From a virus (Duplodnaviria; Heunggongvirae; Uroviricota; Caudoviricetes), in IMG/VR virus record IMGVR_UViG_3300027747_001395: a stretch of 11,361 nt of DNA. One strand, 5' to 3'. Position 1 is the first letter of the stretch. Every line of letters starts with the position of its first letter. The translations under genes and the position numbers were made by a program. The notes beneath the pieces were generated by a model, which saw only the letters and a program-made list of their open reading frames with translations, ran no database searches and had not been told where the DNA came from. Below are positions 6,393-10,627 of the stretch, one piece after another.

Positions 6393-8051
6393 TTAAAAAT
6401 ATAGCTGTTTAGCTAATGACATTGATAAATGATATGTAGGATCAGGAACATTACCAACACTAGCTTTACCTTGTTTGGTAATTACTTTTTGTGGAGATGG
6501 TAGATTAGTATTGTCATTTATAGCAATTAGTTGTGGTTGTTGCATTTCTTCATTCTGTTGTGATTTTTGAATGAGCTGTGTACTATTCATGTCTTGTGTT
6601 GGTTTACTTACTGGTGTAGCTTGAACATTAGATTCACTTACTGGTGCAGCAGTTGCGGCTTTAACACTAGATTCTGCGGCAGTTCCAGCTTGAACTTTAG
6701 ATTCACTTGCTACCGCCGCTGAAGGTGTGGCTGGCGTAGATTCTGCTGCAGGTGCCTTACTCACACCCGTATCAAACGAACCAGAAGAACCACCACCTCC
6801 AAAACTTCCATCTCCGGAAGAGAATCCTGCATTCTTCATCACAGTAGCGGCTTGTCCTTTTACTCCATTACTTGCTGAATCTGCAGGTGGTGATGGGCGA
6901 GCATCAATACTTTTACCTAGAGCTGCTGAAACAAGACCTTTAACTACTGTGGTTATTTCTGACATTCGATCACCAGCATTTGGGTCTTCTTCAGGTTGAA
7001 TGCCATACATTGCTGAATATATGTCACGTACTGTACTAGCAACAAATGCTGGAATTGCAGTTAAAGGCCCACCAAGACCTGATGCTGCATCCAATCCAGC
7101 ACCAATAACATCACCTTCAAGTAGTCGTCCAATAGCAAAGCCTGCACCAGCGGCAGCACCTAATATTGGAATAGATTTAAGTACAGTTTTACCAAGACCT
7201 TTTTCTATAATTGGTGCCGCTAGTTTTTCAATTGCTTTAGAAGTAGAACCACCGAGTCTGGATGCCGCCTGAGTTCCAGATCTAATCCCTCTACCTATTA
7301 CGTCTGCTGCTTTACCTAATCGTCCTGTTTTACTTATCTTTGATATATTATCATTAGCCGCAAGCTTTTCAACCATACTGGCTTCACGTCTGGCCGCTCT
7401 TGCGGCTTTATCTGCTTTACCAACTTTTGGTTTCTCAAAACCATAACGTTCTTTTAGATTATCTAAGAAACTATTACCATTAGACTCCTGAGCTTTTTCA
7501 TCTAGTATATCTATTAATGAGCTAATTGAATTTGAAAGTTTTGCTATTTCATCATTTAATGGTTCTAGTTCTAGATTTGAACCACCTGGCTCTAAGTCAC
7601 CATGTTTACCAGACTCTAGAATAGATTCTTTATTAGATGATTCGTTTGATAATAGTTGTGATACAAAATTATCTTGTTGCTTCTTTGTAATTGACTCAAG
7701 TATTTTAAGTTGATTGGCAATCAGATTAAATTGTTTTTCAAGTGTTTGTAGGGTAGGACTATTATCATTAGATACTCTAGTTGGCGTATCTAGATTTGGT
7801 ATATTGACATTATTGGATCTATTACGTGAAGTCTGTGGTGAAAAGATACCTAGTGTCTCAGTAAATAGTTTAGTCTTACCGATATTTGTTTCATCAAGCC
7901 CATATCTTGATAGGAAGTTTTTAGCAAACTGCTTCCGTTTCATGGAATTGAGACGCTTTTGAGCGGCAGCACGTCTCTCAGTAGTTGGAGCAACCACTCG
8001 CTTGGTATTTGTTATCGGTGATTTAATGCCCTTGATAGTCGGGAGCTTCAC
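6393..8051 (-). CDS. Probable tape-measure / baseplate-hub protein (gp29-like position)
   Basis: GTG start directly after the gp51 stop. Helical, Gly/Ala-rich hydrophobic segments (KSIPILGAAAGAGFAI.RL..GD..GAGLD.ASG) typical of T4-like tape-measure candidates, and position after gp26/gp51. Confidence 0.55.
   Translation of the reverse strand: MKLPTIKGIKSPITNTKRVVAPTTERRAAAQKRLNSMKRKQFAKNFLSRYGLDETNIGKTKLFTETLGIFSPQTSRNRSNNVNIPNLDTPTRVSNDNSPTLQTLEKQFNLIANQLKILESITKKQQDNFVSQLLSNESSNKESILESGKHGDLEPGGSNLELEPLNDEIAKLSNSISSLIDILDEKAQESNGNSFLDNLKERYGFEKPKVGKADKAARAARREASMVEKLAANDNISKISKTGRLGKAADVIGRGIRSGTQAASRLGGSTSKAIEKLAAPIIEKGLGKTVLKSIPILGAAAGAGFAIGRLLEGDVIGAGLDAASGLGGPLTAIPAFVASTVRDIYSAMYGIQPEEDPNAGDRMSEITTVVKGLVSAALGKSIDARPSPPADSASNGVKGQAATVMKNAGFSSGDGSFGGGGSSGSFDTGVSKAPAAESTPATPSAAVASESKVQAGTAAESSVKAATAAPVSESNVQATPVSKPTQDMNSTQLIQKSQQNEEMQQPQLIAINDNTNLPSPQKVITKQGKASVGNVPDPTYHLSMSLAKQLYF
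6606..6745 (-). repeat. Degenerate in-frame coding repeats (Ala/Ser/Glu/Pro linker)
   Basis: AGCTTGAAC(A/T)TTAGATTCACTT at 6618-6639 and 6687-6708. ACTTACTGGTG at 6606-6616 and 6636-6646. Four TAGATTC units encode ES-x-x-x-A repeats. Confidence 0.7.
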
Positions 8052-8225
8052 TTAGATTTCCTCTGTCAACTTATTTTTTTCTTTATCTAAATATGCCATA
8101 AGGAGATCAATGTAAAGATCTCGTTCAAAAGGTAACATGTCTTCTATTTCGGTAATTGAGTATTTATGATGTTGAGCCATAGCAAAAATAGTAGTATAAT
8201 AGTTTGCTAATGTGTTATGACTCAA
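8052..8225 (-). CDS. gp51: Small baseplate hub assembly chaperone (gp51-like, 57 aa; missed by the ORF track)
   Basis: (L/M)SHNTLANYYTTIFAMAQHHKYSITEIEDMLPFERDLYIDLLMAYLDKEKNKLTEEI matches the YY...F.M.QHHKYS.TE.E.M.P.ER..Y..LL pattern. The TTG start overlaps the gp26 TGA and no clear RBS is present. Confidence 0.85.
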   Translation of the reverse strand: MSHNTLANYYTTIFAMAQHHKYSITEIEDMLPFERDLYIDLLMAYLDKEKNKLTEEI

Positions 8226-8938
8226 CGCCAGGTAAAAAAATCATTTAACGTAGTAAGTTCAATCTTACGCTTAGAGCCTAATGAATTAGTATATTCGATC
8301 TTATAATACATCTGAGGAATATTATCAAAGAATGCTTTGATTTTGTCAAATGTCTCTACATTAAGATCATCTAGCCATGCTGCAAGTTCATCAGAGTCGA
8401 CTTCATTTGCAGGATATACGGTGTTCTCATCATATACAGATTCAATACATGAACGAATGAGATATTCAGTTAGTTCAGTTACTGTACTATTTTCTGGCAC
8501 ATTCTCAAGAATCTTGACTGATGGATATGACATAAGCATACCAATAGTATCCGTGATTTCAATCCGATTGGAGATTACAGTTTCAAGATTAGTTACAATA
8601 ACCTGGTCTAGATCAATCTCAAAGTCATAAATCTTATCATCTTCATTATCTCTATAAGATACATTAATGACGTTATTTACCGACATTGATCTAAGCTTGA
8701 GGAAGATGAACTCGAGATCAAATGTAGCAAGCCTATCAACATTTAGATCACGATCAGCTTGGCAACAATTCTGGATAACTTGCTTGATTGCAAGAATAAT
8801 ATCTTTTTCAGTACCGCTCTGTTGACCCATGAGAAGAATTTTTTCTTCCTTGACTGTAAATGGTCTGAATAGAATCGGCTGTTTGGTTGAAGGAATTGTA
8901 AGTTCAAATAGCGGCTTGTCAAGTTTAGGTAGTGTCAT
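8222..8938 (-). CDS. gp26: Baseplate hub assembly protein (T4 gp26 / T4_baseplate family)
   Basis: MTLPK...P.FEL.IPST...I.FRPF.VKEEKILL, L..FD.E.IFL.LR..SV, M.YP, F.KI..FF...P, GL/TL.DFF. RBS GGAG at 8946-8949 (-). Confidence 0.9.
   Translation of the reverse strand: MTLPKLDKPLFELTIPSTKQPILFRPFTVKEEKILLMGQQSGTEKDIILAIKQVIQNCCQADRDLNVDRLATFDLEFIFLKLRSMSVNNVINVSYRDNEDDKIYDFEIDLDQVIVTNLETVISNRIEITDTIGMLMSYPSVKILENVPENSTVTELTEYLIRSCIESVYDENTVYPANEVDSDELAAWLDDLNVETFDKIKAFFDNIPQMYYKIEYTNSLGSKRKIELTTLNDFFTWR
8234..8240 (-). other. Candidate -1 programmed ribosomal frameshift heptamer T TTT TTT
   Basis: gp26 reads GAT TTT TTT ACC TGG CGT TGA. The -1 frame reads TTT TTT TAC CTG GCG TTG AGT..., continuing into gp51 without a stop. 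Confidence 0.6.
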
Positions 8939-8950
8939 AAGTTAGCTCCA

Positions 8951-9598
8951 TTATTTAATAGGGAATGATCCATAAGTAATTTCAAAATCGGTATAAGCTA
9001 TAGTTACTTGTAACTTTAATGGTTGACCATCAGCCCAATTAAGAGTTAGAGGTGTGATTGCTTTAGGAAATGCCTTATAAGCATTAAAGATCATTGATGC
9101 ATTAGATTCAGTTGGGTCTGTATTATCATTATAAACATAAATTGTTAAATTAGTACTATAATAATCCTTATAACCTACTTCGTACGGAACCATGCCTGCA
9201 ACAGAACCTCGTGCATTTCGCAATTGTGACTGACCTGCCGCATGAAAGTTTACTATAGTATTCATCCAGTCATAAAAGAATTTATGAACACCTGCTTTAG
9301 TATCCAATACAAAAGTTAAATTAATATCCTCATATACTACATTATAAGGATTAAATTCGATTGGACCATAGCCTATTCTTGGTGGTCCTTCAATACCTGC
9401 AAATTGAAGCCCAGGTATTGATGCTGTTTCACAACGTAGTGCTAATTGGCCACCATTATAGATTGTCTTATATTTTGATATCGGAGAGTCTGGCCGATTA
9501 AGATAAGGAGGAACACCAAAATTTGCTACATATTTATTGTCTCTAAGTACGCCTGCTTTATTAATCTCTGCAATAAAATCATTTATCTTAACTATCAT
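8951..9598 (-). CDS. gp54: Tail-tube-fold baseplate protein (gp54-like tube initiator)
   Basis: I.DF...I...G..R.N.Y, LRCETASIPG, P...Y.DI.LTF.LD, FF..W...I, Y..N..I, AFP......L.W.......L.VT.AY. Confidence 0.7.
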   Translation of the reverse strand: MIVKINDFIAEINKAGVLRDNKYVANFGVPPYLNRPDSPISKYKTIYNGGQLALRCETASIPGLQFAGIEGPPRIGYGPIEFNPYNVVYEDINLTFVLDTKAGVHKFFYDWMNTIVNFHAAGQSQLRNARGSVAGMVPYEVGYKDYYSTNLTIYVYNDNTDPTESNASMIFNAYKAFPKAITPLTLNWADGQPLKLQVTIAYTDFEITYGSFPIK

Positions 9599-9599
9599 C

Positions 9600-10196
9600 T
9601 TAGTTACTCATTACTTTCTTTTTGGACTCTGCCCACACTTGAGTCTTTGTGGCTTTAGCAAAACGTTCAGTCGGTAGCCAAATTGCCACATCCCATTCAG
9701 AAGGGTAAATATACATAAACTTAGACTGTACATGATTAACTAGATATTGCTTCACACAAGGTTCAAAATATCTATACTTTGATGCACTAGTAAGCACCTG
9801 ATAACTAATTCTAAGTTTGGTCGATTCATCATACCTACTATTTATTCGAGTTTCATATAAAGCATCCATAAGTTTTGCTCTAAGTTCCAATGGAAGATAG
9901 TGCAAATTGATACCCCAAAATCTATTACTTTCTACTCTAAATGGAAATATAAGAGGTGCTCTATCGTAGTAAGGTAGCGTATCTTTATGTTTTGGATCGT
10001 AGAGATACATATACATTGATCCAGGTTTAATGACAGTTTTGCCTCGATCTGGATCTGAATTAATCAACTGTCGTTCGTTGATCCGACCTTGCTTTGAAGC
10101 CATTTCGCGGTACCATTTACGTGCTTCTTCAGTTCGTGCAGGAACATGCCCTGCACGGATACCTTTTGTGATAAGTTCGTCAAATACATTTGCCAT
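9600..10196 (-). CDS. gp2: DNA end protector protein (T4 gp2 homolog)
   Basis: PG.MY.Y.YDPKHK.TLPYYD..PLIF, FWG.NLHYLP...R..L, C.K.YL..HV.S.F..I...EW..A..LP.E.F. Confidence 0.9.
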   Translation of the reverse strand: MANVFDELITKGIRAGHVPARTEEARKWYREMASKQGRINERQLINSDPDRGKTVIKPGSMYMYLYDPKHKDTLPYYDRAPLIFPFRVESNRFWGINLHYLPLELRAKLMDALYETRINSRYDESTKLRISYQVLTSASKYRYFEPCVKQYLVNHVQSKFMYIYPSEWDVAIWLPTERFAKATKTQVWAESKKKVMSN

Positions 10197-10627
10197 TAAA
10201 ATAGTTCGTCCTCAGTAATTTTTATAAATTCCCAGTTTCGGTCTTTACAGTATTGCTCGGCTTGTTCCCATTTAGCTGAATTTACACCCCAAGTAGCAAC
10301 TTCATTAATATAGCGCTTTGTTGCTTTAGTCTGTAACTTTGGTGGTTTGGTTTGAGCTTTGGGTTTTACCTCAATTAAAAATGCTTTGATATTTCCTTCT
10401 TTATCTTTTCGTCTGATGAAAAAGTCAGGGAAATATCTGTGTATCCTGTTATCTATTGGTGATCTGTATGGTATTACTATTTCCTCTGAAGACCACTCTA
10501 TTACATCTGGATGAGAATCAAAGTGTAACATACATTTTAATTCCCAATGAGATCTGTAAACAATGTTAGTGGGATTACCTTTGTATTTATTCGGATTCTT
10601 GGGTGTGAATTTTCCTTTGTATGCCAT
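10196..10627 (-). CDS. gp4: Head completion protein, TnsA-like PD-(D/E)XK endonuclease fold (T4 gp4 homolog)
   Basis: MAYKGKF.PKNP.KY.G.PT.I.YRS.WE, W.SEE..IPY..P.D...HRYFPDF, IEVKP, W.VN.AKW..A...C. Confidence 0.93.
   Translation of the reverse strand: MAYKGKFTPKNPNKYKGNPTNIVYRSHWELKCMLHFDSHPDVIEWSSEEIVIPYRSPIDNRIHRYFPDFFIRRKDKEGNIKAFLIEVKPKAQTKPPKLQTKATKRYINEVATWGVNSAKWEQAEQYCKDRNWEFIKITEDELF

Follow-up and report, generated by a model that had tools for sequence, protein, structure and literature searches.

Programmed −1 ribosomal frameshifting very probably produces two proteins, one short and one long, from a single gp26-type gene for a baseplate-hub chaperone in the uncultured T4-like phage described here. 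The gene lies in a stretch of 11,361 nucleotides (hereafter the window) from a member of the Caudoviricetes, recorded as IMG/VR virus IMGVR_UViG_3300027747_001395. The frameshift model is favored because a slippery heptamer and the −1 phase of the following frame are conserved among relatives, the stop of the first frame and the candidate starts of the second vary, a downstream RNA stem covaries, and T4 gp51 is colinear with the predicted long product.

The minus strand of the window, which has a GC content of ~0.37, carries a T4-type virion module with the following genes:

10627-10196, minus strand: gp4, head closure
10196-9600, minus strand: gp2, DNA end protector
8951-9598, minus strand: tail-tube-like protein (gp54/gp19-type) of 215 aa, matching PF23849 Phage_TTP_2 (E 2.2e-08) and phrog_45 tail tube (E 7.8e-28)
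8222-8938, minus strand: gp26-like zero-frame gene of 238 aa, the predicted short product, with its stop TGA at 8224-8222
8225-8052, minus strand: ORF of 57 aa that could be annotated as 'small gp51'
6393-8051, minus strand: gene of 552 aa, a candidate tape-measure or hub protein, whose GTG start adjoins the TAA of the gp51-like tail
6383-4455, minus strand: protein of 642 aa with phage tail lysozyme and M23 peptidase domains

The slot upstream of gp26 is annotated as gp54 or tail tube in phages PX29, S13, phiM7 and P-SSM7. At the other end of the module, the gp4 head-closure protein (10196-10627, minus strand) matches the Pfam family Tn7_TnsA-like_N (PF08722, E 3.2e-24) as well as phrog_218.

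The 3' end of gp26 reads ...AAT GAT TTT TTT ACC TGG CGT TGA, which places a T-rich heptamer three codons 5' of the gp26 TGA. The elements that define the junction are:

8234-8240, minus strand: slippery heptamer T_TTT_TTT, read in the zero frame as gaT TTT TTT and thus in X_XXY_YYZ register
8241-8243, minus strand: TGA directly 5' of the heptamer, which shuts the −1 frame
8052-8234, minus strand: gp51-like tail in the −1 frame, 60 codons plus TAA (YLALSHNTLANYY...), with matches to phrog_634 and phrog_150

In the −1 frame, the sequence runs TTT TTT TAC CTG GCG TTG AGT CAT AAC... through the TAA at 8054-8052, and the predicted gp26-gp51 fusion accordingly comprises 235 + 60 = 295 aa, with the junction peptide IELTTLNDFFYLALSHNTLANYYTTIFAMAQHHK (...NDFFYLALSHN...). 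Ahead of the conserved tail, the TTG at 8225-8223 is the sole candidate start; it overlaps the gp26 TGA (as TTGA), and no Shine-Dalgarno match is found at it. Because the −1 frame is closed by the TGA at 8243-8241 and this TTG is the only candidate start, any change of frame in the window is confined to 8240-8225. The original prediction, made from the letters of the window, had described the same arrangement: a gp26 ending with T TTT TTT at 8240-8234 in XXXYYYZ register, a 295-aa fusion reached by a −1 slip, a gp51 frame closed by TGA immediately 5' of the heptamer, and a TTG-only start with no clear ribosome-binding site. Each of these elements was recovered in the present analysis.

Runs of seven T or A are scarce in the window, with two observed against ~7 expected from shuffled sequences. 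The single T7 run taken alone is not beyond chance; its conservation exceeds chance. The only other 7-nt homopolymer is an A7 run at 8074-8080 (A_AAA_AAT at 8080-8074 on the minus strand), which is in register inside the gp51 tail; it precedes the tail stop by eight codons, and a −1 slip there would reach TAA immediately.

The junction was compared across 80 related IMG/VR loci that carry gp26 at 93% to 35% amino-acid identity, 79 of which include the gene end, and counts were also taken over the 67 distinct gp26 genes among these relatives (35-93% identity). A T7 or T8 run that starts with the last base of the codon preceding Phe-Phe is present in 79/79 loci with the gene end, and the TTTTTTT heptamer is in register in 67/67 distinct genes. 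The codon that precedes Phe-Phe is GAT, ACT, AGT, TCT, AAT or GCT, encoding five different amino acids across the 67 genes, and its third base is always T. Elsewhere in the same gp26 genes, TTT accounts for 71% of Phe codons and T occupies 51% of such third positions, so that background codon usage gives ~0.26 heptamers expected per sequence. Some relatives carry T8 and keep the same two frames, and the tail lies in the −1 frame at every IMG/VR locus with a tail match.

The features that would matter for independent translation of the tail are variable in the same set. The gp26 stop is TAA in 29, TGA in 23 and TAG in 15 of the 67 distinct genes, and it falls 0, 1 or 3 codons past the run. Candidate tail starts shift position between loci: the TTG of the window is CTG in L007-L014 and CTA or ATA at the stop in other loci, and L018, L020 and L025 have no tail start codon within 25 codons. 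A Shine-Dalgarno-like match accompanies one candidate start in one locus only, and a conserved ATG with a ribosome-binding site for small gp51, which would have spoken for a gene in its own right, is found nowhere among the relatives. Amino-acid conservation in the −1 frame begins with the first codon past the run ([YSFL][LVI]x[LVM]SHxxLxxYY...) and takes in the stretch that leads up to the TTG, whereas the zero frame shows no conservation beyond Phe-Phe.

Ten cultured phages were examined for the same site, and nine of them keep the U-rich heptamer together with its register and the −1 phase, as do the 79 IMG/VR loci. Phage phiM7 has the T7 heptamer and Melnitz a T8 run, both with the tail in the −1 frame. 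In the more distant relatives, which make up seven of the ten, the site takes the form T_TTT_TTC: xxT TTT TTC is found in P-SSM7, Stenotrophomonas phage BUCT608, Cronobacter phage S13 and Aeromonas phage PX29, and also in S-WAM1, S-CAM8 and Vibrio phage D485, again with tails in the −1 frame. The heptamer is absent from Pseudomonas phage Cygsa01 (L086 3220-3245), which reads AGC ATT TTC ACC TAA and in which the ATG of the gp51-like ORF overlaps the gp26 stop (TAATG). This lineage has apparently switched from frameshifting to translational coupling, or may use a single-tRNA slip on U_UUC; TAATG without a heptamer therefore makes a stand-alone tail possible in at least one lineage.

The gp51-like tail was found by tblastn in 524 phage records, and no joined CDS is annotated in any GenBank record examined. 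Annotated small gp51 proteins have inconsistent lengths of 31-57 aa, for instance 31 aa in P-SSM7 and 53 aa in phiM7. The tail is unannotated in Cronobacter phage S13 (L087 3163-3327) and in Synechococcus phages S-WAM1 (L089 904-1095) and S-CAM8 (L090 904-1085), where the records show a 160-190 nt 'gap' past gp26. Annotation of the gp51 tail thus needs correction, since its starts are arbitrary or the tail is missing altogether.

A putative stimulatory RNA structure follows the slip site, with its two arms at:

8218-8226, minus strand: 5' arm GUUGAGUCA, 7 nt past the heptamer, which includes the gp26 stop codon
8171-8179, minus strand: 3' arm UGGCUCAAC

The proposed stem comprises 9 bp (8226-8218 with 8179-8171), extended in the window by three outer pairs (8230-8228 with 8169-8167), and its 7-nt spacer falls within the 5-9 nt expected for a stimulatory structure downstream of a −1 heptamer. 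The stem in the window has a minimum free energy of −17.4 kcal/mol (z −2.6), and the mean fold z across relatives is −3.4, a value to be read with the caveat that related sequences inflate the shuffle controls. In a gap-free alignment of sixty distinct sequences (A1), covering the run with 12 nt on its 5' side and 72 nt on its 3' side, the heptamer forms invariant columns 13-19, and 78.8% of cells at the proposed pairs are paired, a share that falls to 23-48% if the 3' partner is displaced by 1-3 columns. At pair 28/81, 32 sequences have C-G, 15 have U-A and 3 have a C-A mismatch; the pair joins the first base of Leu CUG/UUG to the third base of Gln CAG/CAA, and both changes are synonymous. 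Pair 31/78 is A-U in 35, U-G in 7 and U-A in 4, the change from A-U to U-A or U-G accompanying replacement of Ser AGY by Cys UGY and of Ala GCU by GCA/GCG. An analogous stem is present in phiM7; in P-SSM7 no stem is evident and folding is no better than in shuffles. As both arms encode conserved residues (LSH and AQH), the pairing could partly reflect protein constraint, and with related sequences in the alignment the support for the stem is good and not conclusive.

Profile searches place the two reading frames, in order, in a single protein family. The gp26 product matches PF12322 T4_baseplate over residues 11-235 (E 3.9e-51, 174.3 bits against a cut-off of 24.5) and phrog_150 baseplate hub at profile positions 5-233 of 282 (E 5.6e-54). 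The −1 tail matches phrog_150 at positions 246-276 of 282, in order after gp26, and phrog_634 baseplate hub assembly catalyst at positions 60-113 of 121 (E 2.4e-22). PF12322 also matches both T4 gp26 and T4 gp51 (215 and 178 bits), the latter over residues 1-201, in agreement with the statement in the original prediction that the two T4 proteins belong to one family. A profile HMM was built from 64 non-redundant fusion proteins; T4 gp51 aligns to it over positions 150-279 without a gap across the junction ('ledFFylalshn' in the profile against IVDVFKLLVNPD), and T4 gp26 aligns up to its last residues, GLKEFFELL and stop, which end two residues past the slip point. The scores of this HMM against the T4 proteins are modest, at 25.5 and 32.7 bits. 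The −1 tail is thus colinear with the C-terminal tail of T4 gp51, a resemblance that had been proposed at the outset together with alignment of the fusion to T4 gp51 by HMM.

Genes 26 and 51 of T4 encode 208 and 249 aa, respectively, and are transcribed in divergent directions; gene 51 heads a 51-27-28-29-48-54 cluster, and no slippery run is found at the equivalent sites (GAG TTC TTT GAG in gene 26 and GAC GTG TTT AAG in gene 51). Among five complete phage records, T4 has two PF12322 genes, and phiM7, P-SSM7, S13 and PX29 have one apiece. Given the T4 alignments, the order of the phrog_150 matches and these copy numbers, the predicted short and long products are the counterparts of T4 gp26 and gp51. 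T4 gp26 and gp51 are listed as baseplate hub assembly chaperones, and gp51 is needed for assembly yet absent from the particle (Leiman et al. 2010, PMC3004832). Cyanophage and vibriophage gp51 has been described as lacking ~200 N-terminal residues and as having only ~20% of the T4 length (Sullivan et al. 2010, PMC3037559). This shortness would be explained by the frameshift, since gp26 would supply the missing part.

The predicted structure of gp26 also bears on its role. The AlphaFold2 model of the full protein has a pLDDT of 88, and Foldseek returned no match for it in the PDB or the Swiss-Prot part of AFDB (E > 0.2). Among 48,161 chains compared with VIA-align, the top matches to the full model are 3fgx (Z 8.7), 2ob9 (Z 6.8) and 3klu (Z 6.5), all on residues 1-96. 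When the N-domain is modelled alone, VIA-align ranks 3fgx at Z 9.0 (rmsd 2.6 over 86 aa), 2ob9 at Z 7.2 and 3klu at Z 6.5, followed by chains at Z ≤5.3; Foldseek places the same three chains on top at E 0.3-1.3, which is not significant. Two of these structures are the HK97 tail assembly chaperone (2ob9) and YqbN (3klu), and all three are treated as tail assembly chaperones (PMC9603447). The ranking of chaperone structures fits the prior hypothesis, with Z-scores that are middling, and fold and gene order together favor a chaperone role for gp26. By analogy with T4 genetics and the G/GT paradigm, we infer that both forms would act in hub and tail-initiation assembly and be absent from the virion, and that the long form would be needed in small amounts.

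A gene for a protein of 550-700 aa follows the tail in most relatives. In the window, its 552-aa product has no Pfam match, no tblastn match in the phage collection, and no similarity to T4 gp27, gp28 or gp29 by BLAST or jackhmmer; weak PHROG matches to 'peptidase' and 'endolysin' families fall over a Gly-rich core. In the equivalents from distant relatives, conservation is limited to this hydrophobic core (approximately residues 190-370). The initial description of the gene as tape-measure-like is among the weaker parts of the prediction, drawing on position, size and the Gly-rich hydrophobic core, with no T4 gp29 similarity. In some relatives an ORF of ~105-140 aa, missing from the window, separates the tail from the large downstream gene (L028 2623-2940, L031, L042, L051, L065, L075, L082 3894-4313 and L085 3411-3740), and several of these ORFs carry a DTNGDGVVSEEE-type motif that resembles a calcium-binding (EF-hand or dockerin-like) loop.

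The same observations allow other accounts of the junction to be weighed. Translation of the tail as a separate protein of ~57 aa from TTG 8225 (or ATG 8180), by termination-reinitiation coupling and with the T run as no more than a conserved Phe-Phe, would need no recoding at all, and it is in keeping with the TTGA overlap (a common coupling layout), with the small gp51 CDSs annotated in GenBank, and with the TAATG of Cygsa01, which lacks the heptamer. We nevertheless consider it very improbable for the window. The TTG is not kept, being CTG in L007-L014, three loci offer no start within 25 codons, and annotated starts vary from record to record. Residues of the −1 frame upstream of any start are conserved and those of the zero frame after Phe-Phe are not; the third-position T and the choice of TTT over TTC are retained regardless of amino acid; and T4 gp51 is colinear across the junction. 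A split caused by an assembly or sequencing error, or by gene decay, is harder still to reconcile with the data and is hardly credible, for while homopolymers are prone to sequencing error, the same phase recurs in complete genomes of isolates sequenced by many laboratories as well as in 79 independent metagenome contigs, both frames persist in T8 variants, and both parts are clearly conserved at the amino-acid level.

Slippage of the polymerase rather than the ribosome is an alternative that shares the outcome of the frameshift model. If one extra U were added on the T7 run, a minority of mRNAs with U8 would encode the identical fusion protein in frame. The T8 run of some relatives is compatible with such slippage, as is the under-representation of U7/A7 runs in E. 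coli genes, possibly on account of slippage (PMC4066793), which is matched by their rarity in the window. Seven of the ten cultured phages have TTTTTTC, however, in which six U form a poor template for a slipping polymerase and a perfect X_XXY_YYZ heptamer for a ribosome. Furthermore, a polymerase has no need of the invariant register of the run or of a covarying stem at the spacing of a ribosomal stimulator. Because many lineages carry six U and a C, the register is invariant and the stem is present, polymerase slippage is rated lower than ribosomal frameshifting, and we regard it as unlikely.

Under the model of programmed −1 ribosomal frameshifting, most ribosomes would read gaU UUU UUU ACC UGG CGU UGA and release the 238-aa short form, which would consist of a tail-assembly-chaperone-like N-domain and a second domain, together corresponding to PF12322. 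A fraction of ribosomes would stall with the P and A sites both occupied by tRNA-Phe, held up by the 9-bp stem 7 nt downstream. Both tRNAs would then slip back one base onto UUU UUU (tandem −1 slippage), and 60 further codons read in the −1 frame would give the 295-aa long form with its gp51 tail. In E. coli, H_HH.U_UU.Y heptamers rank among the −1 motifs of highest efficiency, and IS elements employ U_UU.U_UU.C (PMC4066793); both U_UUU_UUU and U_UUU_UUC belong to the H_HH.U_UU.Y class. The signal, its conservation, the covarying stem, the colinearity with T4 gp51 and the gene copy numbers are observed, whereas we infer the slip itself, its efficiency and the protein partners.

A −1 frameshift is conserved in tail assembly chaperone genes, as for lambda gpG/gpGT (Levin 1993; Xu, Hendrix, Duda 2004, as cited in PMC5009743). 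The tail-chaperone frameshift is known, and what is new is its probable presence in the PF12322 family of T4-like phages. No report of a gp26-gp51 frameshift was found in the openly accessible full-text literature, and baseplate, T4-like phages and gp51 go unmentioned in the accessible portion of a 2016 recoding review. The belief expressed in the original prediction that such a slip had not been described for T4-like phages agrees with this literature and with the GenBank records examined.

On a broader scale, we give about an even chance to the proposal that gp26/gp51 is the T4-lineage counterpart of G/GT, with a G-type fold in the N-domain and the same −1 logic, and that the frameshift is ancestral in T4-like phages (cyanophages, pelagiphage-like, rhizobial, Stenotrophomonas, Vibrio, Aeromonas and Cronobacter phages), the T-even branch having replaced it by a gene duplication that yielded gene 26 as the short and gene 51 as the fused long paralog. 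The earlier suggestion that one gene with a probable −1 shift here corresponds to separate paralogs in T4 fits the copy numbers; the suggestion that the recoded state came first stands on less firm ground, being drawn from distribution and not from a rooted tree. If true, the proposal would carry the conserved tail-chaperone frameshift over to the one large group of long-tailed phages believed to lack it, and would explain the catalytic amounts of T4 gp51. The frameshift would link T4 gp26 and gp51, hub chaperones that are poorly understood, to the G/GT principle of a fixed short:long chaperone ratio, and would provide a natural case in which one recoded gene in some lineages is represented by two paralogs in another. 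Cultured phages in which the frameshift can be put to a direct test include S-PM2, Syn9, P-SSM4, phiM12 and KVP40-like phages.

The predicted gp26 system resembles lambda G/GT in several respects: a short and a long product share a common N-terminus, the −1 shift lies near the end of the first ORF, gp26 in the window follows a tube-type gene and precedes a large candidate tail protein, and the best structural matches of the gp26 N-domain, at middling scores, are solved tail assembly chaperones. In contrast to lambda, where the slip heptamer is G_GGA_AAG, the heptamer here is T-rich; there is no sequence similarity between the two systems, gp26 has an extra domain of ~140 aa, and the T4 proteins are tied to hub assembly, not to tube polymerisation. 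A second point of reference is phage P2, whose gpE and gpE+E' form a chaperone pair for a myovirus tail and use a U-rich slip site. P2 and the window have in common a contractile-tail phage, a −1 shift (proposed for the window) on a T-rich heptamer and a short overlap, whereas the two P2 proteins are from a different family and, at about 90 and 140 aa, of far smaller size. The closest comparison is with T4 gp26 and gp51 themselves, which share the PF12322 family with the window gene, the predicted short form ending where T4 gp26 ends and the long form being colinear with gp51. The difference lies in how the two proteins would be encoded: T4 uses two separate genes without a slippery run, whereas the window has one gene and a proposed −1 shift.
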